This document shows, one piece after another, positions 6,940 to 53,151 of a stretch of DNA of 64,000 nt. The stretch's first letter is position 1, and each line of letters opens with the position of its first letter. The position numbers and the translations under genes were made by a program. Where the stretch lies: the sequence record PZ583739.1; one strand, given 5' to 3'. The stretch is from a phage. The notes beneath the pieces were generated by a model. The model was not told where the DNA came from. It saw nothing but the letters and a program-made list of their open reading frames with translations, and made no database searches.

Positions 6940-7167
6940 TTAAATTTCTATTGTACGACGTTCGATAGTCGGATTACCATTTTCATCTTTAGTTCTAACC
7001 ATAGCCTGGAAGACTCTCTGACCAGGATGCAATAATTTATTGAGTTCCTTTTGAAATTCTATTTGAAGTTCTTCGGAAAGGTCAAAAATAGTTTGAGTTG
7101 GGGAAAGTCCGTATACTTCTTTAAGGCGTTCACATGTTTCAATTTCATGCTTCATATCAATTACCAA
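6940..7167 (-). CDS. Hypothetical protein, 75 aa
   Basis: ORF between gene 43 and regA, co-directional; no recognisable motif. Confidence 0.4.
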   Translation of the reverse strand: MVIDMKHEIETCERLKEVYGLSPTQTIFDLSEELQIEFQKELNKLLHPGQRVFQAMVRTKDENGNPTIERRTIEI

Positions 7168-7525
7168 TTGTATATTTGGCTACGAGCTTCCAGTCGTCTT
7201 TTTGTTTGAATGAGATAACACGGAAGTTGTTTGTTACTGCGAACAATTCATTATGCTCTTCTTCTTTGATAGCAATTAAGCCCCAGTCTTCGAGCAGTTG
7301 AGCAATGGAATCACGGCGCTGATAGTCTTCGCCGTCAATATCCACCTGACGACCATCCATGCGCAGCATTTCTTTGAAGTGAACAATATAGTAACGACCT
7401 TGCTTTTGGAGGATGTGGCAGCTCTGGTACAGTACACGGTCTTTATTATTTGCGATGCCCATACGGGTCAGAGTTTCTTTAACTTTCAGGAAGTCTTCAG
7501 GTTGCTTTAATGTAATTTCAATCAT
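7157..7525 (-). CDS. regA: RegA translational repressor
   Basis: 122 aa; MIEITLKQPEDFLKVKETLTRMGIANNKD...NNFRVISFKQK, near-identical to T4 RegA. Confidence 0.96.
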   Translation of the reverse strand: MIEITLKQPEDFLKVKETLTRMGIANNKDRVLYQSCHILQKQGRYYIVHFKEMLRMDGRQVDIDGEDYQRRDSIAQLLEDWGLIAIKEEEHNELFAVTNNFRVISFKQKDDWKLVAKYTIGN

Positions 7526-9131: not shown

Positions 9132-9827
9132 TTAATCTTGGAATTCGTGGCTAGAGCCTTGTTCCATTGCAATCACATAGCTTGCTTGTGTGCCTTCAAA
9201 CTTCGTAGCAAATTTATCATCTTTCGCCCAAAGCATAACACGGTAATCAGCCGGAATCATTTTCATATTCAGTTTGTTAATGATAAATTTAAACGCTGCA
9301 TCGCCTTCGTAATCGCCACACACCAGGGAATACAATGGACGCGCTAATTCTTTATCTTCGAGCTGGTTATAACCATGGATAACAATCTTACCGTCTTTGT
9401 TGGTGATTGCAAAAGTGTCCAGAGACAAACCACCAGCCACACGCAGAAGCTGCTGCAGGTCACTGCCTTTCAGGTCGAAGATAACCTTAGCTACCGGGAA
9501 AGGAATCTTCTTAGCAGGGAACACGATAGTGCTCGGGTCAGCTGCAGGCCAGTGAATCGTTGAACGTTGGTCTTTGATAATGATATTCGATGCATCTTCA
9601 GACAGAGATACTTCAGCTTGGTCAGTTACCAGGCCCAGGATACTTAAGAAGCCGTTCAGGTCATAAATTGCCGCTTCAAAGTCGATTGTATCATTGATTT
9701 CAGATTCACCATATGACGCTCCAGTTACAGAACGAGTTAGGATGGTATTGCCTGGTTTAAGCATAATGCCAGAGTAGATGGAGGTGAAGTTTTTCAAAAC
9801 TGCGATGGTGTCACGACTAAATTTCAT
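9132..9827 (-). CDS. 45: Sliding clamp gp45
   Basis: 231 aa; MKFSRDTIAVLKNFTSIYSGIMLKPG...FWPAADPST...LQQLLRV; collinear with T4 gp45. Confidence 0.95.
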   Translation of the reverse strand: MKFSRDTIAVLKNFTSIYSGIMLKPGNTILTRSVTGASYGESEINDTIDFEAAIYDLNGFLSILGLVTDQAEVSLSEDASNIIIKDQRSTIHWPAADPSTIVFPAKKIPFPVAKVIFDLKGSDLQQLLRVAGGLSLDTFAITNKDGKIVIHGYNQLEDKELARPLYSLVCGDYEGDAAFKFIINKLNMKMIPADYRVMLWAKDDKFATKFEGTQASYVIAMEQGSSHEFQD

Positions 9828-10711
9828 TTCATTTTCCTATTAACATAATAATTTGACCAGGACCGGATTGCACCCTGATAGTTTTCATCATTAAACCCAT
9901 GTTCAATGGCGTGTTTTCTAAACTTAATATACCCTGGTTGGCCTAAAGCATTCCACAATGCTTTAAGTTCATCTTCATACTGTAACCAGGTTCCTCTTGC
10001 TTTAGATTTCCTAAATTTTTCTTTAAATTCAGGGTTGGCATTTCGTTCGGTTGCTCGTTTTGAAGCCTTTATTCTATTATCTGAATTATTCCAATATTCA
10101 GTAATTGATTTTAAATATTTTTCATATACTTCAGATGTATTCATTATAGCTTTGAATTTTAAAGCATACTCAACATCTTTATAACGATTTTTGACTTCAA
10201 CAGACCTTGCTTGTCGAGCTTCGTCAGTCCAATATTCTTTTTGGAAGTCTTTAATTGCTTGAATGTGCTTATCTGAAATTGAACAATCTTTACGAACACC
10301 AACATAATCAGATGTAAGTTCAGATGGATGTAATTTAACAACTTTACCCGTTTTCAAGTTTCGGTATGGAGCATATCCAGGAGCATCATAGCGGCTTTTG
10401 TCGTGTGCATACGTTTTATTAAAGTATTTCTCATTGGTTACAGCTTTAACTGACATTTGAAAAATATTTTCTATTTTCCTTGGGTCCTGTTTTGTTTCCC
10501 CAATGATAGTAACAATATAGTCACCGCTATCAATTAATTCATTATACAGCGTAGTATATTTTGAATTCGGAGAACCTGTATAAATTTTATTATTTTTATC
10601 GAGAATATTTTGGCCATTAAATGTCGTATCAACCTTTGAACCAATATAATAACAAGGGAATTCATTATTTTGTTCCCTTGTTATAAAGGTTATTTTATAA
10701 ATCAAATTCAC
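9824..10711 (-). CDS. GIY-YIG family homing endonuclease (Seg-like), free-standing
   Basis: N-terminus LIYKITFITREQNNEFPCYYIGSK fits the GIY-(10-11 aa)-YIG motif; inserted between 45 and rpbA; basic C-terminal half. Confidence 0.7.
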   Translation of the reverse strand: MNLIYKITFITREQNNEFPCYYIGSKVDTTFNGQNILDKNNKIYTGSPNSKYTTLYNELIDSGDYIVTIIGETKQDPRKIENIFQMSVKAVTNEKYFNKTYAHDKSRYDAPGYAPYRNLKTGKVVKLHPSELTSDYVGVRKDCSISDKHIQAIKDFQKEYWTDEARQARSVEVKNRYKDVEYALKFKAIMNTSEVYEKYLKSITEYWNNSDNRIKASKRATERNANPEFKEKFRKSKARGTWLQYEDELKALWNALGQPGYIKFRKHAIEHGFNDENYQGAIRSWSNYYVNRKMK

Positions 10712-28977: not shown

Positions 28978-29013
28978 TTTATTCTCCAGTATTTGGTAAC
29001 TCAGTATGGGAAC

Positions 29014-29042
29014 ATTATACGTCTATCCCCATACTATGTACA
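29014..29042 (-). promoter_or_regulatory. T4-type early promoter cassette (PeSL-like)
   Basis: Minus strand: GTGTACA, 17 nt, TATAAT, then conserved leader GTTCCCATACTGAGTTACCAAATA. Confidence 0.5.
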
Positions 29043-29354: not shown

Positions 29355-29561
29355 TCACTTGCGACGACGTTTTGGTAATGGTTTAGGGAAGAACATTGCT
29401 TTACCTGCAGGGGTCAAAGTCACACGCAAAGCATTACCAATACCAAGGGATGCTTTAACCAGACCTTTGGCTTTTAACTCACCAAATGCTTGACGTTGTT
29501 CAGGGTCACGAGTGTTAACCATCAGACCTTTTTCACCAGCAGCTTTGATTAATTCTAACAT
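29355..29561 (-). CDS. Hypothetical protein, 68 aa
   Basis: ORF directly downstream of early promoter at 29603-29631. Confidence 0.4.
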   Translation of the reverse strand: MLELIKAAGEKGLMVNTRDPEQRQAFGELKAKGLVKASLGIGNALRVTLTPAGKAMFFPKPLPKRRRK

Positions 29562-29602
29562 TTTATTCTCCGTTTGTTTATTTGGTAACTCAGTATGGAA
29601 TC

Positions 29603-29631
29603 ATTATGTCCTAAGACAAGAGGCTTGTACA
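29603..29631 (-). promoter_or_regulatory. T4-type early promoter cassette (PeSL-like)
   Basis: Minus strand: GTGTACA, 17 nt, CATAAT, then GATTCCATACTGAGTTACCAAATAAAC. Confidence 0.5.
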
Positions 29632-29679
29632 CAATATACTAAATAAAAATACTTAATAAAACCATAAAGGAGAAAGTTT

Positions 29680-30426
29680 ATGATTTTGTCCGGAAGAACT
29701 ATTGATGAACTCAATGAAAAAGTCCAGGCCGCCTTGGCTGATAATTGGTATTTGTTTGGTTCTACTGTGGTGTTGCCAAATACACCTACGGATAGCAAAG
29801 AACGTTTTTTCCAAACTATGTCCAACTCGGAAACTCAGATACCGGGCCCGCCTGGACCAAAAGGAGAACCGGGTGTGTCCGGGCCCAAAGGAGACCCAGG
29901 CGGGGCTGGAAAATCTTCTTATCAGATATGGCTTGACTTGGGGAATACAGGAACTGTTGATGATTTTTTAACTGATACAGCGGGAAAGAGGGAAAAATCC
30001 GAGGTGTTTTGGAGTGGTATAAACGTTCTATTAACTAATGGTGCGACTTCAAACATAATTAGTATTTTAAAGGGGATTCCGCCGACAGCAGGGACTCTAT
30101 CTCCGTTTTTTAGAACCGCTGATGATAAGTTGTGGCCATATAACCAAGACAGAAGCCTAATGTTTAAACTCAACCTTATTGGTAATTTTACAGGAGCCTC
30201 GCAAGCTCGAAGTATAACATTAAATTTCGTTGGAACCAACGGAAACACTTATATACAGAATCGTCCGGAAAATGCTACAGATATTTTGTCTTTTACGACG
30301 TTCTTTAGCATTGATAAAGATGGGGCAATGGCAACCAATGGTACAGCTATAACTGTTACGCCAAATGGCGGCAACTTTACAATAACCTCTGCATTGTTAG
30401 TAGCCGAACAAACAGTGACTTCGTAA
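29680..30426 (+). CDS. Collagen-repeat fibre-like protein, 248 aa, on the opposite strand to its neighbours
   Basis: Strong RBS AAAGGAGAAAG 7 nt before ATG; seven Gly-X-Y triplets (GPPGPKGEPGVSGPKGDPGGAG) followed by KSSYQIWLDLGNTGTVDDFL, a motif I associate with phage tail-fibre proteins; Asn/Thr/Gly-rich C-terminus. Confidence 0.6.
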   Translation: MILSGRTIDELNEKVQAALADNWYLFGSTVVLPNTPTDSKERFFQTMSNSETQIPGPPGPKGEPGVSGPKGDPGGAGKSSYQIWLDLGNTGTVDDFLTDTAGKREKSEVFWSGINVLLTNGATSNIISILKGIPPTAGTLSPFFRTADDKLWPYNQDRSLMFKLNLIGNFTGASQARSITLNFVGTNGNTYIQNRPENATDILSFTTFFSIDKDGAMATNGTAITVTPNGGNFTITSALLVAEQTVTS

Positions 30427-30688: not shown

Positions 30689-31655
30689 CGAACTTGTTCC
30701 AGAACTTCATGTCCACCTTCTCAGGCATACCGTTCTTATGAGCCTGGATGGCCAGGACTTCGACTTCATCGACAGTATTTTCCAACAGGCCTTGGACGAC
30801 TTTGAAAGGCATATCGCCAGCTTTGATTGCTTTAATAATAGAAGCGTTTTTGAGCGGATAAACCAGGTCACCAGTTTGATAGATTTCCTTCAACTGGTAT
30901 CCAGCACGATAAGCATGGCTCAGAGCTTTCCAGTCAATACCTTCATTGGCTTCAGCCTTACGAGCACGTTCACCATATTCTGCATCGAGCTTATTCAGAG
31001 ATTGCTTAAGCTCAATTAAAGACAGGGTGGTTTGGTACTTACGTCCAAGAACAGTATAGAACGTTTGAGGGCCTGTTTTCTCATGATTATGGAATACCCA
31101 TTCACAGAACTCATTTTCAGGGAGTCTGTGTTTGATATCTTCTACCTTAGTTCGACGTTGCTTAGTTGAACCGTCTTCTTGATAATCAACCCACTGTTCA
31201 GGAATCTGGTTAACGATTGCCAGTACACCACGTAGAGCGGCCAATCGAGAACCTTTAACACCATATTTGGAAGCTTGCTTACGGACATAACCCAAATAGG
31301 CTTTCATGTTAGTTGTATAGAACCGTGAACGGTTATCCTGGATAAACTTCCATACATCTGGTAAATCGGATTTGACAACCAGGTCAGCCGGGGTGTGAAT
31401 CATATCCAGAGCAACGGTTTCGCCTTCGGCCGCCAGTTTAAAGAAATATTTCAGACTATAAAGTTCATGGTCAACATCATCTTTTGTATTTTTGGTGGCC
31501 GTGTTATTCGTGTTCAGGTTGGTATGGTTCATCGCCGTCCCAAGTAGAATATCACGAGGATGTGGAACAAAGATTTCTTTAAAATCGACATCAGATTCTG
31601 AGGTACTTGTTCCATAAAGGTGGCTACCGAAGTAGCCTTTCATAACTGTTCTCAT
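30645..31655 (-). CDS. Predicted Pol-beta-superfamily nucleotidyltransferase, 336 aa
   Basis: Start trimmed to ATG at 31655 with RBS GAGGA; N-terminal GSHLYGTSTSESDVDF fits the GS-x(9-13)-DxD NTase signature. Confidence 0.55.
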   Translation of the reverse strand: MRTVMKGYFGSHLYGTSTSESDVDFKEIFVPHPRDILLGTAMNHTNLNTNNTATKNTKDDVDHELYSLKYFFKLAAEGETVALDMIHTPADLVVKSDLPDVWKFIQDNRSRFYTTNMKAYLGYVRKQASKYGVKGSRLAALRGVLAIVNQIPEQWVDYQEDGSTKQRRTKVEDIKHRLPENEFCEWVFHNHEKTGPQTFYTVLGRKYQTTLSLIELKQSLNKLDAEYGERARKAEANEGIDWKALSHAYRAGYQLKEIYQTGDLVYPLKNASIIKAIKAGDMPFKVVQGLLENTVDEVEVLAIQAHKNGMPEKVDMKFWNKFVEEVYLDNHNSYYR

Positions 31656-32104
31656 TTTTTGTCCTCGAAGTGGATTACAGGACACATCTTAGATTTACGA
31701 GCTTTAATGTATTGAATAACGATGTTTTCTTTAGTTTCCTTTCCTTCACGTTTGGCTAGAATACGTTGCCATTCCTTTTCTTCTTTATGTAAATCATACC
31801 AGGACCATAAATTCATTAGACCATACATTAAACCAAATGCTACCGCCAGAATAAGAGCCAGTGTAGCTAGTCCTAAAATAAACCCTAAGCCTAAACCGAC
31901 CGGGGTGCTTAATACAAAGAAATGCTCTAATACACCAGCCCCAGCGACAGTTAATCCAAAACCCATACTACCTGCAGCAACAGCACAAACAAAACAGGCC
32001 CAAACCATTTTCCAGAAATAAGCACACAATGAGTGTGGGCGAGAATTGCGGTCATAAAATTTATCGTGGAAACGAGCATGCCAAGAGTTTGTATTGATAA
32101 TCAT
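31652..32104 (-). CDS. Multi-pass membrane protein, 150 aa
   Basis: Three or four hydrophobic helices (Gly/Ala/Leu-rich), charged C-terminal tail; stop overlaps NTase start. Confidence 0.45.
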   Translation of the reverse strand: MIINTNSWHARFHDKFYDRNSRPHSLCAYFWKMVWACFVCAVAAGSMGFGLTVAGAGVLEHFFVLSTPVGLGLGFILGLATLALILAVAFGLMYGLMNLWSWYDLHKEEKEWQRILAKREGKETKENIVIQYIKARKSKMCPVIHFEDKK

Positions 32105-39554: not shown

Positions 39555-39854
39555 TTAGAAAGAACCAGAACCTTTAATTGTGTTCTGGCGACCTTTATTT
39601 TCTAATTCAGAATGGTCAATTTCATATGCTTGTGCTACGCCAAAGGCCTTTTTAACTTTAGCTAAAGAACCTTTAGATGTAACAATATTAAAAGTATTGC
39701 CTTTAGTAAAATCAACCGAATCCACTTGCACGCCCTGTTTACCGAGGCTTGCTACAATAGCATCAACATATTGTTGGTCTAAATTACCTTGGACTCCGAT
39801 TTGAAATGCTTTAGGAGCTTTAGCTTCTGTGATAAATTCTTTATAAGTTAACAT
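39555..39854 (-). CDS. Internal-protein-like small protein with CTS-like N-terminus
   Basis: First ATG gives MLTYKEFITEAKAPK..., resembling the T4 internal-protein capsid targeting sequence MKTYQEFIAEA. Confidence 0.45.
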   Translation of the reverse strand: MLTYKEFITEAKAPKAFQIGVQGNLDQQYVDAIVASLGKQGVQVDSVDFTKGNTFNIVTSKGSLAKVKKAFGVAQAYEIDHSELENKGRQNTIKGSGSF

Positions 39855-39902
39855 TTTATATTCTATTGTTTGGTTGATAAAATCAGTATACAACCTTTTT
39901 AG

Positions 39903-40374: not shown

Positions 40375-40644
40375 TCATTTCTTAGAGTATTGACCCATAA
40401 GTTTAGCGATATCACCCAATTTCTGATTAAACAAATAATCCACTTCTTTACCAGATTTATCTACAATTTGCCACTGGCCACTTCCTTTGTTACCAAAGGT
40501 CCAATCACCAACTTTAAATGAAGTTCCATTAACTTTTTTAATAGAAGTAAACTCAAAGCCTTCTTTCTTAGCTAAAAATGCCATGCGGCTTTCATCTGAT
40601 TCATTTAATACAGATTCAGCCAAAAATTCTTGATACGTTTTCAT
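40375..40644 (-). CDS. Capsid internal protein (IPII/IPIII-like) with capsid targeting sequence
   Basis: 89 aa; N-terminus MKTYQEFLAES matches T4 CTS; located between denV and e as ipII/ipIII are in T4. Confidence 0.7.
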   Translation of the reverse strand: MKTYQEFLAESVLNESDESRMAFLAKKEGFEFTSIKKVNGTSFKVGDWTFGNKGSGQWQIVDKSGKEVDYLFNQKLGDIAKLMGQYSKK

Positions 40645-40647
40645 ATT

Positions 40648-41142
40648 TTACCTTTTGTATGCGTCAAAAGTTCCAGTACGGAAAGTTTCGATAACTCGTT
40701 TTGCCCTATTCGGAGTCTGGACTTTATACCATCTTGAGTCAGCTAGTTCCTTAGCAGCAGCTTCCCATGATTTAGCCTTCAGAAGTCGCATACCCTTAGG
40801 AAAACCAGCTACCCCAGCAACACCCATCTGGAATACCATATTAATGAGTGCACAGCGACGAACTTCATCCAGTACATCATAAACAGGTTTTAAGACAGGA
40901 TGTCTCAAGATTCCAGCTTTAGCTTTTTCGACCGAACGATTAAACAATGTTTCAGCTTCGTGTTGGGTTATGCGACCATTGCAGACGCGACCCATGAGCT
41001 TGTCGAGCTCAGCACGAGCAACATCTTTTGATGGGTTCTTAGTTATCAGTTGCCCGATACCAATGGTCCAATAGCCTTCAGTATCTTTATACAAATCCAA
41101 CTTACAACCTTCATCTATACGTAACATTTCGAATATATTCAT
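40648..41142 (-). CDS. e: Lysozyme (endolysin, T4 gene e)
   Basis: 164 aa; [32 protein letters not shown]...[12 protein letters not shown]...[16 protein letters not shown], near-identical to T4 lysozyme. Confidence 0.98.
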
Positions 41143-41168: not shown

Positions 41169-41630
41169 TTATCCGAAAATTTGAGTCATTACCTTGTACA
41201 TCGATTTGCCCATCACGTACTGCCATTGGCTCGGTTTAATCAGAGCAAATGCATCAAACTCTGGGACCGAACTGCCATCCGGGAAGGTATGATAGGCAGA
41301 GCATTTACTGTGTCTGAATTGCTCATGCTCGACAGGAACCGTATACAAAAACAGGTGAAGGTTTTTGTTATCTGAATAACGGAACTCACCGAGGTCTTTT
41401 AAGAATGCCGGGTCGTATTGGGTAAACCCAGTTTCTTCTTCGGTTTCACGAATAGCCGCTTCAATCGGGGATTCACCAGCTTCCACATGACCCTTAGGGA
41501 TGTCCCATTTGTGTGCTGGCATACCTGGTTTACGAGAACCGGTCACACGACCCATGAATAACTCTTTATCTTCAGTCATGAAAATAATGCCAGCAGATAA
41601 TTCTTTCACCTTGTTTTTCTTACTCATCAT
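41169..41630 (-). CDS. nudE: Nudix hydrolase NudE
   Basis: Nudix box GHVEAGESPIEAAIRETEEETG; start trimmed to ATG at 41630. Confidence 0.9.
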   Translation of the reverse strand: MMSKKNKVKELSAGIIFMTEDKELFMGRVTGSRKPGMPAHKWDIPKGHVEAGESPIEAAIRETEEETGFTQYDPAFLKDLGEFRYSDNKNLHLFLYTVPVEHEQFRHSKCSAYHTFPDGSSVPEFDAFALIKPSQWQYVMGKSMYKVMTQIFG

Positions 41631-41856
41631 CACGTTCCCAAGATTTTTTAAAGATTTCGCCCATAATAATTTCAATACGTGTTTCTGTTGAAGGCGATTC
41701 ACTATCAGAAGTTTGAACTTTATATTCAGAAATAGGGCGGAACATATCTAAGTCAGTTTCTAAATCATCTTTGATTTTCTCTTCTGATGTACCTGTGTCA
41801 TAGGAATACAGATAAGAATCACATGACTCAGATTTAATATAAATCGCAATACTCAT
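41620..41856 (-). CDS. Hypothetical acidic protein, 78 aa
   Basis: Start overlaps upstream stop (AAATGA). Confidence 0.4.
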   Translation of the reverse strand: MSIAIYIKSESCDSYLYSYDTGTSEEKIKDDLETDLDMFRPISEYKVQTSDSESPSTETRIEIIMGEIFKKSWERDDE

Positions 41857-42440
41857 TTACGGCATTCCTCAATAAAAGAGTTCAATGTATTTTTCTTATT
41901 GATATCGTCATATAGCTTTTTAACTTTAGAAATACGAAAAGGTACTTCAATAGCCATAGTCCATAAAAATGATGCAATAAGTCCAACAGCAGCAGAAGAA
42001 AGGCACGCGCCCATTACAGCTACAGGTGCTTCATTTTTACCTGTCAAGAAAAACAACAGGATTGGTAAAAATAAGATTCCAGTCCACGCATAAAACCTGG
42101 AACAAATTAACTTATCAAATTCATCTTTCCAGGTACGAAATCCATATTTCTTGCTATAAGAAATTAATGGGTCGGGTGTCTGTTCTTTGAGTGGTTCTGG
42201 TTGATACCCATTAATGATGTATCCCATTTTATATTCCTTAATTAAAAGCTCTTTAACATGACGATTGCATCGCGACCAATCAACATTTTCCACCTTGATT
42301 CCTTCATCACCATCATCAAGGTTCGCCCAATATTTTTTGGTAATCATAAATTCATCTCTTGATACAATTATACCTGTATTTTCTGCCCGGCGGATGAAGT
42401 TTACATCAACACCCATACAACCGGGTTCATAAAGGGCCAT
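41853..42440 (-). CDS. Membrane protein with soluble N-domain, two TM helices and C-terminal ...FIEECRK tail
   Basis: 195 aa; hydrophobic helices ILFLPILLFFL and VAVMGACLSSAAVGLIASFLW; tail motif shared with 45448-46676 proteins. Confidence 0.45.
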   Translation of the reverse strand: MALYEPGCMGVDVNFIRRAENTGIIVSRDEFMITKKYWANLDDGDEGIKVENVDWSRCNRHVKELLIKEYKMGYIINGYQPEPLKEQTPDPLISYSKKYGFRTWKDEFDKLICSRFYAWTGILFLPILLFFLTGKNEAPVAVMGACLSSAAVGLIASFLWTMAIEVPFRISKVKKLYDDINKKNTLNSFIEECRK

Positions 42441-43126
42441 TACCAGCCCTCCATAGGGAATTCCAGATATACTTGAGCATTAACGCGGATTTCATTTGTA
42501 ATCTTTTTAACACGGTCGGTATTACGAGACACACGACCAAACCAGCGCCAACCGTTACTTACTGCACGAGAACCTGTATGCCATGTCTGCCAATCAAACT
42601 GGAGCAACGTGCGGTCAGGAGCATCCCACTTGGTTAATTCATTGGACTCAATTTTTTCCAGAACTTCTTTATGCCACTGGCGATAGATAAGTTCGCCTTC
42701 AGGAATCTGACTAAATTGGGCAGTTCCGGTCGCAAAATAAGTAGGACACACATCAGCGTTAACAAGACCAAGAATATGTTCAGAATGGTAACGAGGATTA
42801 TCATAATCAGGTTGCCCTGCAGTAATAAAGTGTTGACCAACCGGAATATCCTGGCGCGGTACATCATCATGGTGATAACCTGGGATAGCAGGATACCAAC
42901 CAGGCATTAACATATGTACACGAGAATCGAATACGACATTTTCATTAGTCCAATCAATCGGAAGATTGGCAATAAAACTACGAGTGATTGGGCCGCCTTT
43001 ATCCCAAGCAAAACTCAAATCGCAGTTAAAGAACATTGGTTCATTTTTGATTTGATCGTTTTGAACATCGTGAGCAAAACCACTTACGGCACGAGCTCGG
43101 CTATTAAACACTTTAGAACTATTCAT
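42440..43126 (-). CDS. Hypothetical protein, 228 aa
   Basis: Trp/His-rich ORF; TIR AATGAGGAAAATATT-ATG. Confidence 0.5.
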   Translation of the reverse strand: MNSSKVFNSRARAVSGFAHDVQNDQIKNEPMFFNCDLSFAWDKGGPITRSFIANLPIDWTNENVVFDSRVHMLMPGWYPAIPGYHHDDVPRQDIPVGQHFITAGQPDYDNPRYHSEHILGLVNADVCPTYFATGTAQFSQIPEGELIYRQWHKEVLEKIESNELTKWDAPDRTLLQFDWQTWHTGSRAVSNGWRWFGRVSRNTDRVKKITNEIRVNAQVYLEFPMEGW

Positions 43127-43153
43127 AATATTTTCCTCATTGATTGTGGGACC

Positions 43154-43182
43154 ATTGTGTCATAGTCCCACTTGGATGTACA
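43154..43182 (-). promoter_or_regulatory. T4-type early promoter
   Basis: Minus strand: GTGTACA, 17 nt, CACAAT, then GGTCCC. Confidence 0.4.
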
Positions 43183-43185
43183 CAC

Positions 43186-44145
43186 TTATTTTGCGAAAGG
43201 ACGAATTAAATGTTGGTTAGCTTTAAAACGTTTAACATAGTCTTCGTGCCCCAGGGTGTTGTACATATTAACCACTTCCTGGTAATGTTCCCAGGCATAC
43301 TCACGGAACCATCCAGAAGTAATGGAGGTGCAGACTTTTTCCAGCGCAATATGGAAGCTCACGGATGGAGAGATATTGAACTCATTAGGAACCTGCGAAC
43401 GCTCCAGAGCGAGCACACATGCTTCTTCATAAACCCCTGCCAGTTTAATAACATCAGGGAGTGCTTCAAATTTTTCACGCGAGGTCATGACTTCTGAATC
43501 ATCCTTCATATAGAACTTATATGCAGGCTTATCAGCAAGCGCCACGGCCTCGTGGATGGAGTCATGGTCAAGGGTATAGATTGTATCATTAAAGAAAGTT
43601 TTCTTGCCCACGTCTAGTTTAGGGTGACTGTATGACAGTGTCTCTGCCTGACGCTGCAGCATGATTTTCTGCAGTTCATCATTAAGAACAATACCCTTAT
43701 TGCGAAGGTAATTAATATGACTCATGGTCTTCAGGAAGAATGGATTGTTCTTCAGGTAACGATGAGATAATTTAATTGCCAGACAAATATCAGGAGTTGC
43801 CCAGTAAAAACCTGTAAGACGATCTTTTTTAATATGATTTTCAGCATATTTCAGGAGACGATAACTTGAGGTGAAATCTTCGTCTTGAAGCTCACCAGTA
43901 ATTTCTCGTACGTTGGTCAGGGCACGGACAATATAAGCTTCAAAATAGGTTTCTTTGCCATTGTACATACATTTAAAAGCTTGGACGTTAGGGTTATCCA
44001 CAGGAACATGAGCACCGAACATACGTGCTTTAAAGTGGTTCCAGGAGCCTTGGTCAGCGATAAAGTCCCAATCAGAGTTTTCAATTTTCTGACTTTCAAT
44101 CAGACCAGCGTTATGTAATGCACGAGAACCAATAACTAACATCAT
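43186..44145 (-). CDS. Hypothetical protein, 319 aa, possible nucleotidyltransferase fold
   Basis: N-terminal IGSRALHNAGLIESQKIENSDWDF loosely fits GS...DxD; TIR AATGAGGAAAATATT-ATG. Confidence 0.45.
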   Translation of the reverse strand: MMLVIGSRALHNAGLIESQKIENSDWDFIADQGSWNHFKARMFGAHVPVDNPNVQAFKCMYNGKETYFEAYIVRALTNVREITGELQDEDFTSSYRLLKYAENHIKKDRLTGFYWATPDICLAIKLSHRYLKNNPFFLKTMSHINYLRNKGIVLNDELQKIMLQRQAETLSYSHPKLDVGKKTFFNDTIYTLDHDSIHEAVALADKPAYKFYMKDDSEVMTSREKFEALPDVIKLAGVYEEACVLALERSQVPNEFNISPSVSFHIALEKVCTSITSGWFREYAWEHYQEVVNMYNTLGHEDYVKRFKANQHLIRPFAK

Positions 44146-44159
44146 AATATTTTCCTCAT

Positions 44160-44326
44160 TAGTAAAGACGAGTTACTTCATATTTTCCAAGTGCCGATTT
44201 TTTCGCTTCAATTCGTGAGGCAGCAAGATTGGCGGCCTCTAGTGAAGAAAATTGAACCACTTGAGAAGTATTCTGTCTTACTCCACCTTGCGGGTGAGTG
44301 ACAAAAACAATAAGAACATTATACAT
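44160..44326 (-). CDS. Hypothetical protein, 55 aa
   Basis: Hand translation MYNVLIVFVTHPQGGVRQNTSQVV...; same TIR AATGAGGAAAATATT-ATG; directly downstream of promoter 44355-44383. Confidence 0.3.
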
Positions 44327-44354
44327 AATATTTTCCTCATTAGTTGACGAGATA

Positions 44355-44383
44355 ATGATACTACGTTTCTTTAGGCTTGTACA
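44355..44383 (-). promoter_or_regulatory. T4-type early promoter
   Basis: Minus strand: GTGTACA, 17 nt, TATCAT, then TATCTC. Confidence 0.45.
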
Positions 44384-44429
44384 CTAAATTTCTGCACATA
44401 AGTCCTCCTATCACATCCTTGTGATAATT

Positions 44430-44654
44430 TTAGCAGCTACTCGGGTGCCAGATTTTACCGTCAGGTTGAGCAACAAAGGTGCGACCAGCGTCTTCGCCAT
44501 AGCAAGAGCTGTACAACCAGTCTTCGAGACGAACCTCACCATCATATTCGTCAAGCTCAATACCGAAATCTTGAGCGTTAGCCATATCTTTTACTTTCTT
44601 ATACAATGCAGCCAGTTCAAGTGCTGCTTTTTCTAATTCATTAATATCAGACAT
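44430..44654 (-). CDS. Small protein, 74 aa, C-terminal ...KIWHPSSC (divergent member of the WVSSSxxC family)
   Basis: N-terminal helix plus C-terminal W-x-x-S-S-C tail; first of four tandem paralogues. Confidence 0.45.
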   Translation of the reverse strand: MSDINELEKAALELAALYKKVKDMANAQDFGIELDEYDGEVRLEDWLYSSCYGEDAGRTFVAQPDGKIWHPSSC

Positions 44655-44663
44655 TTTTATTCC

Positions 44664-44861
44664 TTAGCATTCGTAAGAGGAGGACACCCAAGAGGTACCA
44701 CTAATTGTAATACAACCATTATAAAGCGTGATATGTCGTTCTAGGTCACGAACACCATCGATATAGATATCAGCTTCTTCGCGTTCTTCTTTGCAAATCT
44801 GGATAACGTTTTCAATAGCTGCCGCAGCAGTACGGATTGCACAATCTAATTCACGAGACAT
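44664..44861 (-). CDS. Small protein, ~65 aa, C-terminal ...SWVSSSYEC
   Basis: Trimmed to ATG at 44861 with RBS AAGGAA; tandem paralogue. Confidence 0.45.
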   Translation of the reverse strand: MSRELDCAIRTAAAAIENVIQICKEEREEADIYIDGVRDLERHITLYNGCITISGTSWVSSSYEC

Positions 44862-44869
44862 AACATTCC

Positions 44870-45151
44870 TTAACATTCAGAAGAGGAGGACACCCAACCG
44901 CCTTTTTCCAGGTCAGTTGTATAGTCATGAGTATTAACAATAGCCCATTCAGGATGGCCATGTTCTTCCCAATGAGCAAGGTCGGCTTTCAGGGCGCCAG
45001 GAGAATAATAGTCACCGCCCATACCGCGAGCAGGGTATATATTAAAATGAGTCTCATATTTGTTTGCAATTTCCTCGGCACGACGAATAGCTTTATGGAT
45101 GTCATTTACTGCGTTAGCCAGTTCTTTATTTTTACGGTAATCATTCATCAT
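44870..45151 (-). CDS. Small protein, 93 aa, C-terminal ...GGWVSSSSEC
   Basis: Tandem paralogue; helical N-terminus. Confidence 0.45.
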   Translation of the reverse strand: MMNDYRKNKELANAVNDIHKAIRRAEEIANKYETHFNIYPARGMGGDYYSPGALKADLAHWEEHGHPEWAIVNTHDYTTDLEKGGWVSSSSEC

Positions 45152-45160
45152 AGAGTTTCC

Positions 45161-45451
45161 TTAGCACATTGCCGAAGAGGAGACCCAAGCACCAACTGTA
45201 ACGACACCGTTTTCAACTTCGCCGCCGTTGTTTTCAATTTCATCTTTAAACCACTTGGAGCATTCATAACCGACAGGATAATATGTACGGCCTGAACCAT
45301 AATCACCGGTACCGAATTGGATACCGTATTCATCTGCGATTTCTTCGCAGTGTTTTTCAATTTCAGAGGTCTTATTTAGAAGAGAATAGATAGCTTTTTC
45401 TGCAGATTTTTCATCATAATACTTGGGGATAGCAATTTCAATTTTATTCAT
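45161..45451 (-). CDS. Small protein, 96 aa, C-terminal ...GAWVSSSAMC
   Basis: Tandem paralogue. Confidence 0.45.
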   Translation of the reverse strand: MNKIEIAIPKYYDEKSAEKAIYSLLNKTSEIEKHCEEIADEYGIQFGTGDYGSGRTYYPVGYECSKWFKDEIENNGGEVENGVVTVGAWVSSSAMC

Positions 45452-45801
45452 GATTTACATTCCTTAATAAAGGTTTCAAGGTCATTACGTTTTGTTTTGT
45501 CTAGGAACTTATTATACTCAGCCATTGCTGAAGCATATCTCTTCCGACTAGGAGCATTCAAGGCGTTTGTGTGACAGATATCATACACAACAGGGATAAA
45601 ATAAGCCACAACAGCCGGAGCAATTATCATAAAGAAGCCCATATCAATAGGCATGACTCCCTCGATTGCAGCCATAACCGTGGTCATTACCAGACCAACC
45701 AAACCGCCAAGCATGGCGGTGACAATCCCTAATAATAAACTGGCACCAATATCATATTCAGCCAATTGATAAACATGTGATGCAAGACTAGGCCGTTCCA
45801 T
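45448..45801 (-). CDS. Two-TM membrane protein with C-terminal ...FIKECKS tail, 117 aa
   Basis: ATG at 45801 with strong RBS AAGGAGG; hydrophobic helices; tail motif shared with neighbours. Confidence 0.45.
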   Translation of the reverse strand: MERPSLASHVYQLAEYDIGASLLLGIVTAMLGGLVGLVMTTVMAAIEGVMPIDMGFFMIIAPAVVAYFIPVVYDICHTNALNAPSRKRYASAMAEYNKFLDKTKRNDLETFIKECKS

Positions 45802-46147
45802 TACGAACCTCCTTAATAAATTCTTCGGCACATTTAATTTTGTGCTCTTCTTGCAGGGAAACACATTTTTGTTCCCACTCTTTAACTCGCCCACGATATC
45901 CTTTATTCATATGATTTTGATGCCACACGTTTATCAATATCATGCTCAGGACTGTAATAAAAGGTGCTGCAATTATTAGTGACCAGGCGACTCCAACACT
46001 AATGATATTCATATCCCCACAAAGCACCATCATTATAACCCCAACGATGCACATGGACAAAGCTCCAAATGGAGGCATAAGGTCTTTATCAATCTTGTCT
46101 GCGTACACAAATTTTTCTGGTTTACTTGGCAGATATAGCGTTCGCAT
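45788..46147 (-). CDS. Two-TM membrane protein with C-terminal ...EEFIKEVRN tail, 119 aa
   Basis: ATG at 46147 with RBS AAAGGGG; two hydrophobic helices. Confidence 0.45.
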   Translation of the reverse strand: MRTLYLPSKPEKFVYADKIDKDLMPPFGALSMCIVGVIMMVLCGDMNIISVGVAWSLIIAAPFITVLSMILINVWHQNHMNKGYRGRVKEWEQKCVSLQEEHKIKCAEEFIKEVRNGTA

Positions 46148-47385: not shown

Positions 47386-47691
47386 TTAGATTTTGTTTTC
47401 CTGCACACCATAATAAAGTTCATCAGACACGATATCCAGGATGCGGCGAACATATTCATCATGGTATTGGCAGTCAAAATCAAATGCAACAGTAGTTTCC
47501 GCTTCACGAGTGAATTTAACTTGCACATTCAGGTGATTAACAACGTTAGTTAATTTATCAGTAAAGAACTCTTTTGCTACCGCCTGTTGGACTTGCACTT
47601 TGAACTTGGTGTTACGAATCATATTTTCAGCAGATGCGAAATTACCAGTTTTATCAAAGTCAACAAGCGCCAGGTTGATGATGAATTTCAT
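47386..47691 (-). CDS. Hypothetical protein, 101 aa
   Basis: RBS GGAG; directly downstream of promoter 47733-47761. Confidence 0.45.
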   Translation of the reverse strand: MKFIINLALVDFDKTGNFASAENMIRNTKFKVQVQQAVAKEFFTDKLTNVVNHLNVQVKFTREAETTVAFDFDCQYHDEYVRRILDIVSDELYYGVQENKI

Positions 47692-47732
47692 TTTATTCTC
47701 CAGTGTTTTATTTGGTAACTCAGTATGGAATC

Positions 47733-47761
47733 ATTATGCCTTAAAGCAGGGGGCTTGTATA
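47733..47761 (-). promoter_or_regulatory. T4-type early promoter cassette (PeSL-like)
   Basis: Minus strand: GTATACA, 17 nt, CATAAT, then GATTCCATACTGAGTTACCAAATAAA; -35 sits inside the GGGGGcuuguauaCCCCC hairpin. Confidence 0.5.
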
Positions 47762-47773
47762 CCCCCTTTTTAA

Positions 47774-48205
47774 TTAAATTTCAAATTCTTTTCGGAAGTT
47801 GGAAGCATAAGACTGAACTGATGCTTTGTTGAATCCAAACTCACGCACAATCATATCAATAACAGCTCTGCGAGCAGCACCATTAGACATATTAACAGTT
47901 TTGAACATATCATAGCATAAATCTTTGTTGCTCATACCGGAGCGTTTAGGTGCTTTTGGTTCAGCTTTAGGAGTAGGTTTAACTTCTGGTTTAACCTGTC
48001 CATCATTCAGACCTTTAAAAATTTTACCTGCCAGAGTTGCCAGTTTAGCAGCTTCGCCACGAGTGATACCAAATACTGCCGGGTTAAATGAAATACCTTC
48101 AGCTGTCAGACGTTTGAAGAACATACGTGCTGCGGATTGTGCTTCAGCTTCAGAAGAGTTGTTTAATGCCAGTTTAACATACTTAACCAGTTTTGAAGTT
48201 TTCAT
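47774..48205 (-). CDS. Hypothetical protein, 143 aa, paralogue of 48289-48714
   Basis: Trimmed to ATG at 48205 (MKTSKLVKY...); C-terminal ...AARRAVIDMIV...VQSYASNFRKEFEI. Confidence 0.45.
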   Translation of the reverse strand: MKTSKLVKYVKLALNNSSEAEAQSAARMFFKRLTAEGISFNPAVFGITRGEAAKLATLAGKIFKGLNDGQVKPEVKPTPKAEPKAPKRSGMSNKDLCYDMFKTVNMSNGAARRAVIDMIVREFGFNKASVQSYASNFRKEFEI

Positions 48206-48247
48206 TTTATTATCCCGTTTGTTTATTTGGTAACTCAGTATGGGATA

Positions 48248-48276
48248 ATTATACACTATCCCACCTGGAAGTAAAA
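48248..48276 (-). promoter_or_regulatory. T4-type early promoter cassette (PeSL-like)
   Basis: Minus strand: GTTTTAC, 17 nt, TATAAT, then TATCCCATACTGAGTTACCAAATAAA. Confidence 0.5.
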
Positions 48277-48288
48277 CACTTTTCTCAA

Positions 48289-48714: not shown

Positions 48715-48765
48715 TTTATTTCTCCAAAGTTTTGTTTGATTCAGTGTGTAACTCAATATGGAATC

Positions 48766-48794
48766 ATTATGCACCCGGTCAATTCGGATGTACA
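48766..48794 (-). promoter_or_regulatory. T4-type early promoter cassette (PeSL-like)
   Basis: Minus strand: GTGTACA, 17 nt, CATAAT, then GATTCCATATTGAGTTACACACTG. Confidence 0.5.
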
Positions 48795-48830
48795 CTACTT
48801 TTTGAAGAAAATTTCAAATTTATTCAGGGT

Positions 48831-50375: not shown

Positions 50376-50452
50376 TGGTCGGGGTGGTGGGATTCTAACC
50401 CACAACCTACGGTTTAGAAGACCGTTGCTCTATACAATTGAGCTACACCCCG
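50376..50452 (-). tRNA. tRNA-Arg (anticodon UCU), CCA encoded
   Basis: Hand-folded cloverleaf: acceptor CGGGGTG/CACCCCG, anticodon stem ACGGT/ACCGT, loop CTTCTAA, T-arm GTGGG-TTAGAAT-CCCAC, discriminator A + CCA. Confidence 0.8.
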
Positions 50453-50454
50453 GG

Positions 50455-50528
50455 TGGCCCCATCCGGACTTGAACCGGAAACCTGCCAGTTATGAGCCGG
50501 ATGCTCTAACCAATTGAGCTACAGGGCC
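50455..50528 (-). tRNA. tRNA with CAU anticodon (Met, or Ile if lysidine-modified)
   Basis: Hand-folded: acceptor GGCCCTG/TGGGGCC, D-arm GCTC-AATTGGTTA-GAGC, anticodon loop CTCATAA, T-arm TCCGG-TTCAAGT-CCGGA. Confidence 0.8.
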
Positions 50529-52032: not shown

Positions 52033-52257
52033 TTATTCCACACCAGCAGCTTTCAAAAGTTTTTTAAGATTGGCAGTACCTTGAGCGGAAAATGTGACTT
52101 TGCCACCTTTTTCACCGATGCTACCGGTCAATTTAGCAAGTTTATCACTTGGAATTTTTTTAAAATCAGCCAGTGTACCATCAAAGGTTTTTGTAACAAC
52201 TGGCAGTTCATCTTCGTGTCTTTTAGCTTCGGTAATAAATTCTTGATAAGTTTTCAT
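52033..52257 (-). CDS. CTS-tagged capsid internal protein candidate, 74 aa
   Basis: N-terminus MKTYQEFITEA; own early promoter. Confidence 0.65.
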   Translation of the reverse strand: MKTYQEFITEAKRHEDELPVVTKTFDGTLADFKKIPSDKLAKLTGSIGEKGGKVTFSAQGTANLKKLLKAAGVE

Positions 52258-52287
52258 TTTGATTCCTATTGTTTATTTGATGAGATA

Positions 52288-52316: not shown

Positions 52317-52571
52317 TTATTTTTTAGGGATACGGTAGTAACGCATCTCAACATCTTTCTGCTTGTACCACTTTTTGATAAGGTCTTCAGAACCTTTAAT
52401 AGTAACGATGTCATAGCGACCATCATGCGATACTTCAGCACTTAACTGCATGAAGTTGTCTAGTGAACGACGCAATTCCTCATTAGAAAAACTACCACGC
52501 GGGGAACCAACATAAGCAAACTCAACTTTTGCATCTGCGGCTTCGTTAATAAATTCTTGATAAGTTTTCAT
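52317..52571 (-). CDS. CTS-tagged capsid internal protein candidate, 84 aa
   Basis: N-terminus MKTYQEFINEA; own early promoter. Confidence 0.65.
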   Translation of the reverse strand: MKTYQEFINEAADAKVEFAYVGSPRGSFSNEELRRSLDNFMQLSAEVSHDGRYDIVTIKGSEDLIKKWYKQKDVEMRYYRIPKK

Positions 52572-52596
52572 GTTGTCTCCAGTAGTTGATGAGATA

Positions 52597-52627: not shown

Positions 52628-52870
52628 TTATTTTAAGTCTTCCAGACGTTTTTTCATCTTGGTGCCGTTCTTAGCAATCTCGCCTGCATCAGAACAAAGA
52701 GCAAGGAGAGCTTTAACTTTACCCTGGTCGCCTTTAAAAGATGATGCATCTACTGAATCAGCAAGTTCTTTGATACGTGCAAACAGGCGCTCTGCTTCAG
52801 CAAGGGCTTGACCAAGTTTAACTTCCATACCATGGGAAGATTCTGTTATAAATGTTTGATAAGTTTTCAT
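52628..52870 (-). CDS. CTS-tagged capsid internal protein candidate, 80 aa
   Basis: N-terminus MKTYQTFITES. Confidence 0.65.
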   Translation of the reverse strand: MKTYQTFITESSHGMEVKLGQALAEAERLFARIKELADSVDASSFKGDQGKVKALLALCSDAGEIAKNGTKMKKRLEDLK

Positions 52871-52878
52871 TTGAAATC

Positions 52879-53151
52879 CTATTTTAGATAAATTGCATAT
52901 TTTTTATAACCAGCCGTCTCATGGCGAAGACCCTTGTCATTGGCAAAACGCTCAATGTTATTAATTTGGTTCTGGTCAAGTTCTGAAATGTCAAACGCGA
53001 AAAAGTTGCGTTTGTTGCCAATTGTTATATGGTCAGTTAAGTCAATGCTATACAGGTGATTGATATTGTCAATCATAGCTTTGACCGCTTTACTAATTTT
53101 TACTTCTTCATTCAGTTGTGACTCGTTGAAAAATTCATTGAAAGTTTTCAT
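52879..53151 (-). CDS. CTS-tagged capsid internal protein candidate, 90 aa
   Basis: N-terminus MKTFNEFFNES; late promoter TATAAATA 10 nt upstream of the ATG. Confidence 0.6.
   Translation of the reverse strand: MKTFNEFFNESQLNEEVKISKAVKAMIDNINHLYSIDLTDHITIGNKRNFFAFDISELDQNQINNIERFANDKGLRHETAGYKKYAIYLK

Follow-up and report, generated by a model that had tools for sequence, protein, structure and literature searches.

Why should three consecutive genes that encode unrelated proteins begin with exactly the same letters? These early genes belong to a T4-like phage, a Gaprivervirus with VR20 as its nearest named relative; they lie in a variable region bounded by the lysozyme gene e and the tRNA genes, and were examined in a window that comprises the whole 64,000-nucleotide stretch of phage DNA analysed (sequence record PZ583739.1). 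On the minus strand the 18-nt sequence AATGAGGAAAATATTATG is found, identical, at 43124-43141, 44143-44160 and 44324-44341; an exact-repeat search of the window thus reproduced the first-pass annotation's observation of a single initiation region shared by three neighbouring genes. The genes and the three copies are as follows.

42440..43126, minus strand: 228-aa gene (phrog_1843)
43186..44145, minus strand: 319-aa gene (DUF7277 and DUF7275, phrog_2141)
44159..44326, minus strand: 55-aa ORF (phrog_20278), inside the 181-nt unit between copies B and C
43124..43141, minus strand: copy A, AATGAGGAAAATATT followed by the ATG of the 228-aa gene, with a GAGG Shine-Dalgarno sequence and an A/U spacer of 8 nt
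44143..44163, minus strand: copy B, ACTAATGAGGAAAATATT followed by the ATG of the 319-aa gene
44324..44344, minus strand: copy C, ACTAATGAGGAAAATATT followed by the ATG of the 55-aa ORF

Paralogy was ruled out as the source of the shared start, since the three proteins belong to three different PHROG families. The 228-aa protein matched no Pfam family, neither the 319-aa nor the 228-aa protein gave a significant match when searched by sequence against solved structures, and the 319-aa protein has no similarity to the NrdC.11-like protein that neighbours a fourth near-copy of the start region. Use of the three ATGs as start codons is a prediction; the same three starts are annotated in VR20, VR7, VR26, SP18 and EAWsc9, and two of them, those of the 228- and 319-aa genes, are annotated in phage RZ as well.

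All three copies consist of GAGG, the 8-nt spacer AAAATATT and ATG, such that the Shine-Dalgarno sequence and start codon form the 3′ end of the element, as they do in the promoter-early stem-loops (PeSLs) considered below. Copies B and C match exactly over 21 nt (ACTAATGAGGAAAATATTATG, 44143-44163 and 44324-44344) and A and B over 19 nt, with identity ending 2–5 nt 5′ of the Shine-Dalgarno sequence; the copies are direct repeats, B and C lying 181 nt apart and A and B 1019 nt. The 16-mer TAATGAGGAAAATATT, which had been placed before all three ATGs, is exact in B and C, but copy A (CAATGAGG...) has C in place of T at 43142. From its base composition the window should hold 1e-5 exact 18-mers, and a search of the window with the 16-mer allowing up to two mismatches gave four matches against 0.22 expected in shuffles. 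A profile derived from 76 other start regions in the window assigns the 15 nt ahead of the ATG a probability of 1.3e-6 per gene. In-register identical runs between start regions measure 0–6 nt for 3069 gene pairs, and runs of at least 10 nt are confined to two start-region families, one of them the present repeat, making the run-length distribution bimodal. Finally, random placement among ∼115 genes would put three exact copies on three consecutive genes with a probability of 4.6e-4. Chance is excluded by base composition and by the start-region profile alike.

Two functions that the sequence might have suggested were rejected. The RegB endoribonuclease targets a GGAG motif within the Shine-Dalgarno sequence of early mRNAs (PMC3014915), and was ruled out because the Shine-Dalgarno sequence here is GAGG and GGAG is absent from the 21 nt. 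An antisense promoter was also considered, as the repeat contains CATAAT on the plus strand, which resembles a −10 box; in a promoter scan none of the three sites gave a promoter on the plus strand. GGAG does occur in the window's other family of repeated start regions, GGAGAATAAAATG.

The DNA immediately upstream differs from copy to copy, as the following predicted features illustrate.

44355..44383, minus strand: early-promoter-like site before copy C (TGTACA, 17 nt, TATCAT; 9/12 matches), a member of the six-copy family D1
43154..43182, minus strand: weak promoter-like site before copy A (TGTACA at 43182-43177, 17 nt, CACAAT at 43159-43154)
43146..43171, minus strand: 10-bp stem-loop that overlaps the −10 element of copy A and ends 4 nt before copy A

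The assertion that two of the copies lie directly behind early promoters holds clearly for copy C and weakly for copy A, where the site begins right behind the stop codon of the 319-aa gene, has 8/12 matches and, being under the threshold of the scan, was read directly from the sequence; in VR7 and VR26 its −10 box is CATAAT. The hairpin at copy A is arranged as in the stem-loops of PeSL cassettes, and its stem is kept in VR7, VR26 and RZ through G-U wobble changes; at copy C the only counterpart is a weak inverted repeat, A/T-rich and 6 bp long, on the upstream side of the promoter (44400-44415). Promoter activity and a role for the hairpin are predictions. At copy B neither a promoter nor a stem-loop was found. 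This copy lies inside an operon and holds the TAA stop codon of the 55-aa ORF (44161-44159), which makes it a likely coupling or re-initiation site with no promoter of its own.

What, then, keeps the three copies alike? Comparison with other genera indicates that each gene has held on to its start region. GAGGAAAATATT is base-perfect before homologues of the 319-aa gene in five of the six other genera compared, and the genera that keep this start region are Mosigvirus, Winklervirus, Marfavirus, Karamvirus and Dhakavirus in addition to Gaprivervirus. The 12 nt before the ATG are identical at 12/12 positions against five genera, at a divergence where four-fold synonymous sites are 31–51% identical, and the DNA further upstream in these five genera is unrelated to that of the window. 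Across 18 distinct upstream contexts of 319-aa homologues, with amino-acid identities of 66–99%, exact GAGGAAAATATTATG is present in 15, and conservation rises from ∼0.3 to at least 0.9 at position −13/−12. For homologues of the 228-aa gene, about 14 of 35 distinct contexts retain these 12 nt, and in VR20, VR7, VR26, SP18, EAWsc9 and JS98 there is no loss of the start-region sequence at any of the three genes. As a control, gene e has a conserved Shine-Dalgarno sequence but not a conserved spacer, and at genes 43, 44 and 45 the window and T4 have different start regions. Taken together, these comparisons show that the start region has been kept by each gene under purifying selection since before the split of several Tevenvirinae genera, and that the DNA upstream of about position −13 is interchangeable between phages. 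In T4-like genomes the exact 18-mer is also found ahead of ORFs from at least nine unrelated families, with several of these copies lying 4–8 nt after a tRNA gene.

These observations bear directly on the explanation proposed in the first-pass annotation, namely that one promoter-plus-RBS cassette was recently duplicated within the genome and now drives unrelated ORFs. Copies A and C do share a layout in register (a −35 TGTACA, 17 nt, a −10 box and 11–12 nt to the start region), and the window does contain near-identical cassettes of promoter plus start region, the families D3/D4 with exact matches of up to 32 nt. Against this, identity between A and C and between A and B is limited to the start region: over the 49 nt upstream A and C agree at 21 positions (∼43%) and A and B at 13, and copy B has no promoter at all. 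Moreover, the 319- and 228-aa genes have the same start region behind unrelated DNA in other genera, hence the copies are older than the genome of the window. Recent cassette duplication is thus largely refuted as judged from these alignments, and we consider it improbable; what survives of the original idea is that the ORFs are unrelated, that their translation signals are identical and that copy C, with copy A less clearly, closes an early-promoter cassette, whereas the promoter part is not shared. Gene conversion among neighbouring copies, maintaining their identity with no selection on the sequence, is more improbable still. The copies are close direct repeats, three of them exact and clustered, in a highly recombining phage whose nearest relative VR20 encodes uvsX and genes 46 and 47, but gene conversion cannot account for identity between genera, and such concerted evolution was rejected on account of genomes in which the 228-aa gene has a variant start (GAGGAAAATAAT, GAGGATAATATT or GAGAAAAATATT) and the 319-aa gene still has the standard one, with no sign of co-conversion. 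We attach equally little weight to independent convergence on a consensus T4-type ribosome-binding site, under which identity and adjacency would be insignificant. The repeat is close to the consensus of the window's start regions (AGGAAAATAAAATG), about five further genes of the window lie within 1–3 mismatches of it, and its 15-mer core is common in viral contigs (more than 120 stretches among the matches listed, mostly in unrelated viruses); we estimate that a collection of that size would contain a 15-mer many times by chance, so this count is uninformative and the 18-mer scan is the informative one. The profile probability, the bimodal run lengths, the adjacency of the three copies and the occurrence of the 18-mer before so many ORF families all speak against convergence of this kind. 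As to ultimate origin, the presence of one sequence on three unrelated genes could be due either to copying from a common source or to convergence on an optimal sequence.

An alternative of a different kind is that the repeat is a translational operator, through which one regulator, most plausibly the RegA repressor, would bind the three mRNAs, along with a few more, and shut them off together. In this case binding specificity, beyond ribosome binding, would freeze the spacer, and a sequence-specific constraint of some sort is needed to explain a base-perfect spacer at saturated synonymous divergence; generic selection for a ribosome-binding site does not obviously account for it, a point against the explanation favoured below. 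The window encodes RegA (7157-7525, a 122-aa protein, PF01818, E = 4e-61). RegA sites are A+U-rich and unstructured, have a 5′ poly(A) tract and include or abut the AUG, an upstream UAA possibly aiding recognition, and the T4 operators include those of gene 44, rIIB and dexA (PMC3014915). GGAAAAUAUUAUG fits this description, which is one of low specificity, and is unpaired in predicted folds. In the T4 genome the classic operator, at the start of gene 44, is AATGAGGAAATTATG; it matches the repeat save for a 3-nt insertion, and the start of gene 44 in the window has the same 12-nt core, ATGAGGAAAATA; a literature search for the exact gene 44 operator string gave no match, and the operator sequence was confirmed from the T4 genome. 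However, RegA sites are loosely defined and many A/U-rich start regions would qualify. The archetypal gene 44 operator itself differs in bases between T4 and the window phage, which argues that RegA binding normally freezes its sites less tightly than is seen here. Compared with known operators, then, the repeat shares the A+U-rich, unstructured, poly(A)-bearing character, near-identity to the T4 gene 44 start region and a regA gene in the same genome, but known operators vary between phages and the repeat is base-perfect across genera, the likeness being one of sequence. We regard RegA control as a possibility worth keeping in mind, though a doubtful one, and it can be compatible with the explanation that we favour.

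That explanation, which we consider probable, is that the repeat is a selected, portable and self-sufficient start region (GAGG, AAAATATT, AUG) that forms the 5′ boundary of three independent gene modules, ends PeSL-type cassettes and doubles as recombination microhomology. Copies A and C would be the 3′ ends of two PeSL-type early cassettes (−35, −10, stem-loop, Shine-Dalgarno, ATG), and copy B would serve ribosomes that have just terminated on the 55-aa ORF. In every context the leader is very short, with a promoter start site, a hairpin, the 3′ end of a tRNA or a stop codon only a few nucleotides upstream, and this may be why all of its bases, beyond the Shine-Dalgarno sequence, are constrained.

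The recombination part of this explanation draws on phage RZ, which lacks exactly 181 nt between copies B and C and has its junction inside the 21-nt repeat. The same junction is present in DK-13, pEC-M719-6WT.2 and PSD2001, and the 55-aa ORF is absent from RZ and from these three relatives; the direct repeats thus coincide with a rearrangement junction. Direct repeats 181 and 1019 nt apart could serve as recombination microhomology, and crossing-over between B and C would remove or re-insert the 55-aa ORF with one intact start region remaining. Adjacency of the 55- and 319-aa genes is common to Gaprivervirus and Dhakavirus, and loss in the RZ group is consequently the simpler history. More generally, relatives differ in which ORFs separate the 319-aa gene from the 228-aa gene and in which ORFs precede the 319-aa gene, and in ∼190 of 207 matching phage records homology to the RZ junction query begins only at the 5′ edge of the start region. 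The latter is weak evidence of crossing-over at that point, because in a gene-dense genome viable recombinants need junctions at gene boundaries by any mechanism. Synthetic junction queries for the remaining deletions, A with B (the 55-aa ORF fused to the 228-aa gene) and A with C (promoter C fused to the 228-aa gene), each matched zero of 50,697 phage records; only one of the three possible repeat-mediated deletions is therefore seen, which counts against the recombination part of the favoured explanation.

The repeat appears to match regulatory cassettes of a type known from earlier work on T4-type phages. PeSLs are mobile cassettes (Arbiol et al. 2010, PMC2839356; Comeau et al. 2014, PMC4122927) that by definition end in a Shine-Dalgarno sequence and start codon and have crossovers mapped between the Shine-Dalgarno/ATG and the −10 box (PMC2839356, PMC4122927); they have been proposed to shuffle ORFs by recombination between copies. 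The locus would resemble them in combining a putative early promoter and a predicted stem-loop with Shine-Dalgarno sequence and start codon, and it does so in having several similar copies per genome and in lying in a hyperplastic region where adjoining ORFs vary between close relatives: it sits between e and the tRNA genes, the 55-aa ORF is variably present and insertions of variable ORFs precede both the 228-aa and the 319-aa gene. That an ORF between two copies is missing from a relative with one copy likewise recalls ORF192 of RB49 as compared with phi1. It differs in that the exact repeat is just the 15–21-nt start-region end of a cassette, the promoter parts of A and C having diverged and copy B having none, and in that across genera the start region goes with particular genes and not with the cassette. 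Recombination between flanking PeSL copies would yield mini-circles or excisions during infection; what is seen here is the evolutionary product, the RZ-type junction. Precise absence of the 181-nt unit in the RZ group with one repeat left also agrees with deletion between short direct repeats, as in the work of Albertini et al. (1982) in so far as it is cited in PMC4122927, except that the repeats here are functional start regions and the product retains a working gene start, which random repeats usually would not provide. T4-type translational coupling offers a further parallel at copy B, where the TAA of the 55-aa ORF, followed by an in-frame TGA, lies within the start region 13 nt before the next ATG, and in SP18 and EAWsc9 the TGA within TGAGG is the stop of an inserted upstream ORF; the parallel applies to copy B only, as A and C are preceded by non-coding promoter or hairpin sequence. 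A literature search found no published description of such a repeat for Gaprivervirus.

A bolder and more tentative idea, unlikely to hold in full, is that the repeat marks an accessory-gene regulon of the Tevenvirinae, as a sequence-specific post-transcriptional operator or minimal portable leader under RegA or an unknown RNA-binding factor, and is at the same time a preferred crossover point for ORFs. If true, the 319-, 228- and 55-aa genes would belong to this regulon together with small ORFs in tRNA clusters and others, the base-perfect Shine-Dalgarno sequence and spacer at saturated synonymous sites would be explained, and the start region would be a favoured crossover point for ORFs entering or leaving variable regions.

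On a practical level, the start region is a compact natural expression signal found across contexts and marks candidate insertion slots for phage engineering. For T4-type phages, the locus would offer a natural example of a regulatory sequence that doubles as a joint for gene-cassette exchange, one relative having lost exactly the unit between two copies. It also shows that an entire ribosome-binding region, spacer included, can be conserved much more strictly than the gene it serves, and the specific constraint to which this points might be a RegA-type operator or a minimal leader.

We show that the 18-nt block AATGAGGAAAATATTATG, present before three consecutive genes of phage record PZ583739.1, is a start region (Shine-Dalgarno sequence, spacer and ATG) under strong purifying selection, and that it forms the 5′ boundary of interchangeable gene modules. 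Megablast of positions 41500-46000 assigned the window to the T4-like phages, genus Gaprivervirus, with VR20 as the closest named relative (96% identity across the entire query). The repeat lies in a variable region between lysozyme gene e (40648-41142) and the tRNA genes, where genes are oriented on the minus strand:

43124-43141, minus strand: copy A of AATGAGGAAAATATTATG, before the 228-aa gene
44143-44160, minus strand: copy B of AATGAGGAAAATATTATG, before the 319-aa gene
44324-44341, minus strand: copy C of AATGAGGAAAATATTATG, before the 55-aa gene
44383-44355, minus strand: promoter-like site before copy C, TGTACA-17-TATCAT, from the promoter scan
43182-43177 and 43159-43154, minus strand: promoter-like site before copy A, TGTACA, 17 nt and CACAAT (8/12 matches, below the scan threshold)
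43146-43171: 10-bp stem-loop before copy A, covering the -10 box and ending 4 nt before the repeat
50376-50528: tRNA-Arg and tRNA-Met

The ORFs that start at the three ATGs encode 228, 319 and 55 aa, and all three starts are likewise annotated in VR20, VR7, VR26, SP18 and EAWsc9; the annotation of RZ, a further Gaprivervirus, agrees on where the 228- and 319-aa genes begin. Each protein is from a different family (phrog_1843 for the 228-aa protein, DUF7277 plus DUF7275/phrog_2141 for the 319-aa protein and phrog_20278 for the 55-aa protein). The 18-nt identity reported in the first-pass annotation is borne out by identical minus-strand blocks, with shared lengths of 21 nt for B and C and 19 nt for A and B; B and C match the annotation's 16-mer exactly, but copy A carries C in place of T at 43142. 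At its N-terminus the 319-aa protein has a stretch (LVIGSRAL...DWDF) that resembles a nucleotidyltransferase motif, and it is so annotated in one relative.

Allowing up to two mismatches, the 16-mer has four matches in the window against 0.22 expected in shuffles, while base composition predicts 1e-5 exact 18-mers. The stricter null, a start-region profile built from 76 other gene starts of the window, assigns the 15 nt preceding the ATG a probability of 1.3e-6 per gene, and three exact copies on three consecutive genes have a chance of 4.6e-4. In-register identity between start regions is bimodal, at 0-6 nt in 3069 gene pairs and at least 10 nt only within two families, GAGGAAAATATT and GGAGAATAAA, the former comprising copies A-C and a near-copy at gene 31652-32104. 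This near-copy, AAGGAAAATATTATGAT, shares 16 identical nt with copy B and precedes a minus-strand 150-aa ORF directly upstream of an NrdC.11-like gene. Promoter or start regions hold nearly all of the window's exact repeats of at least 16 nt.

The first-pass annotation had interpreted the repeat as a duplicated promoter-plus-RBS cassette with two copies behind early promoters, and this was supported only in part. Copy C does follow a promoter-like site, a member of the six-copy, ∼55-nt promoter family D1, but the site before copy A, which follows the stop codon of the 319-aa gene, falls below the scan threshold (its -10 is CATAAT in VR7 and VR26). Copy B lacks a promoter, and the 55-aa ORF ends on its TAA. 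In the DNA preceding the repeat, A and C match at 21/49 positions and A and B at 13/49; the repeated unit is therefore the start region rather than a promoter-plus-RBS cassette.

Homologues of the 319-aa gene on viral contigs (66-99% amino-acid identity) occur in 18 distinct upstream contexts, of which 15 have the exact GAGGAAAATATTATG; beyond -13 the upstream DNA is unrelated (other genes, promoters, hairpins). Conservation rises from ∼0.3 to at least 0.9 at -13/-12 and remains high until roughly the sixth codon. The exact sequence is present in Mosigvirus mar005P1, Winklervirus CHI14, Marfavirus PWKp18, Karamvirus VIPECLUMC02 and Dhakavirus JS98; Tegunavirus TG1 differs by one deletion, and Ceceduovirus Assk, from another subfamily (45% amino-acid identity), by two changes. 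Between the window and the five genera with the exact sequence, four-fold synonymous sites of this gene are essentially saturated (31-51% identical), and the 12 nt before its ATG are 12/12 identical. Homologues of the 228-aa gene (75-99% identity) have the exact 12 nt in ∼14 of 35 contexts and one-base variants in others; within a given genome the 319-aa gene does not share these variants, a pattern that speaks against gene conversion between copies.

In the control gene e, conservation is confined to the Shine-Dalgarno sequence and does not extend to the spacer, and T4 and the window have different start regions at genes 43, 44 and 45. Generic ribosome binding does not account for the base-perfect A/U spacer of the repeat. 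A candidate explanation, judged from sequence, is a translational operator for RegA, as regA is present in the window, the T4 gene 44 start region, the classic RegA operator, is AATGAGGAAATTATG, and the repeat fits the published description of RegA sites (PMC3014915). However, that description is loose, and the gene 44 operator is itself not frozen between genera. With GAGG instead of GGAG as its Shine-Dalgarno sequence, the repeat lacks the RegB nuclease motif; GGAG does occur in the other family of repeated start regions in the window.

The exact 18-mer was found in 37 stretches of the viral-contig collection, and it stands before at least nine unrelated ORF families in T4-like genomes. Among these are small ORFs within tRNA clusters of T4-like genomes other than VR20, where it begins 4-8 nt past the 3′ end of a tRNA gene (loci L012, L013, L018, L023, L036, L039 and L041), and a 167-aa ORF at ∼136.4 kb of VR20, preceded by a fourth exact copy outside the window (L017, 10813-10830).

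All Gapriverviruses examined keep the three start regions, except that RZ, which has no 55-aa ORF, keeps two, and the gene content around them differs. VR7 and VR26 have a 216-aa ORF between the 321-aa (equivalent to 319-aa) and 228-aa genes; in SP18 this slot is taken by a 74-aa ORF with a promoter cassette of its own, and homology to the window restarts at TGAGGAAAATAT. SP18 and EAWsc9 have additional ORFs between promoter C and the 55-aa ORF; here homology restarts at TGAGGAAAATATT, in which TGA terminates the inserted ORF. Across T4-like contigs with the 319-aa gene, the 228-aa gene is always nearby in the same order (window 42440-44145; loci L063-L095), and the slot between them is empty or holds ORFs of 74, 216, 143, 121+68, 135+65, 46+134 or 101 aa, depending on the phage.

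In RZ, promoter C and the start region are joined directly to the 319-aa gene; exactly 181 nt are missing from the alignment, and the gap fits at any point inside the 21-nt repeat. DK-13, pEC-M719-6WT.2 and PSD2001 have the same junction. The 55- and 319-aa genes are adjacent both in Gaprivervirus and in Dhakavirus JS98, which makes loss in the RZ group the more parsimonious scenario, and this loss may have arisen through recombination of copy B with copy C. A search of 50,697 phage records revealed neither of the two other deletions that the repeats could mediate. Homology to a query spanning the RZ junction starts at the 5′ edge of the start region in ∼190 of 207 matching phage records, although viable junctions in a gene-dense genome are confined to gene boundaries, making this weak evidence for the crossover position.

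Several other features of the window were recorded. A second, stronger family of repeated early regulatory cassettes, D3/D4 (∼74 nt), begins at a GTGTACA -35 box, continues through CATAAT and GATTCCATACTGAGTTACCAAATA and ends at GGAGAATAAAATG; it contains the window's longest exact repeat (32 nt, at 29577 and 47707) and, in contrast to the GAGG of copies A-C, has GGAG, the RegB nuclease motif, in its Shine-Dalgarno sequence. Four small paralogous ORFs of 74, 65, 93 and 96 aa, with products ending WVSSSxxC, form a tandem array (44430-45451) whose copy number differs among relatives; at each gene junction, a 33-nt repeat combines the conserved C-terminal codons of one gene with its stop codon and the TAAGGAA Shine-Dalgarno sequence of the next. 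A start region and an N-terminal coding repeat (MKTYQEF...) are common to five small genes; this resembles the leader that targets T4 internal head proteins to the capsid, and relatives have ip genes annotated at matching positions.

28990-29020, 29559-29632, 47689-47762, 48204-48277 and 48722-48795: D3/D4 cassettes
44659-44691, 44865-44897 and 45156-45188: 33-nt repeats of the WVSSSxxC array
39823-39878, 40613-40668, 52226-52281, 52540-52595 and 52839-52894: MKTYQEF... start and N-terminal repeats

A plus-strand 248-aa ORF (29680-30426) within the minus-strand early region encodes an Sf6-type tail needle knob domain (PF16532, E = 8.5e-33), with a weak collagen-repeat match below Pfam's cut-off. 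In the core replication cluster, a minus-strand 295-aa ORF (9824-10711) without a Pfam match lies directly upstream of gene 45; in VR20, genes 44 and 45 instead flank a 196-aa ORF, with rpbA upstream of gene 45, a difference in layout that suggests an indel inside a conserved module.

Promoter-early stem-loop (PeSL) elements, mobile regulatory cassettes of T4-type phages, consist of an early promoter and stem-loop with a Shine-Dalgarno sequence and start codon at the end; they are located in hyperplastic regions, adjoining indels, and their crossovers have been mapped between the Shine-Dalgarno sequence or ATG and the -10 box (PMC2839356; PMC4122927). Copies A and C would be the ends of PeSL-type cassettes, and the entire short leader may be constrained because almost nothing precedes it. 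The feature probably belongs with the known PeSL-type cassette ends and short-repeat gene gain and loss of T4-type phages, its unusual property being the deep, base-perfect conservation of a start region common to unrelated genes.
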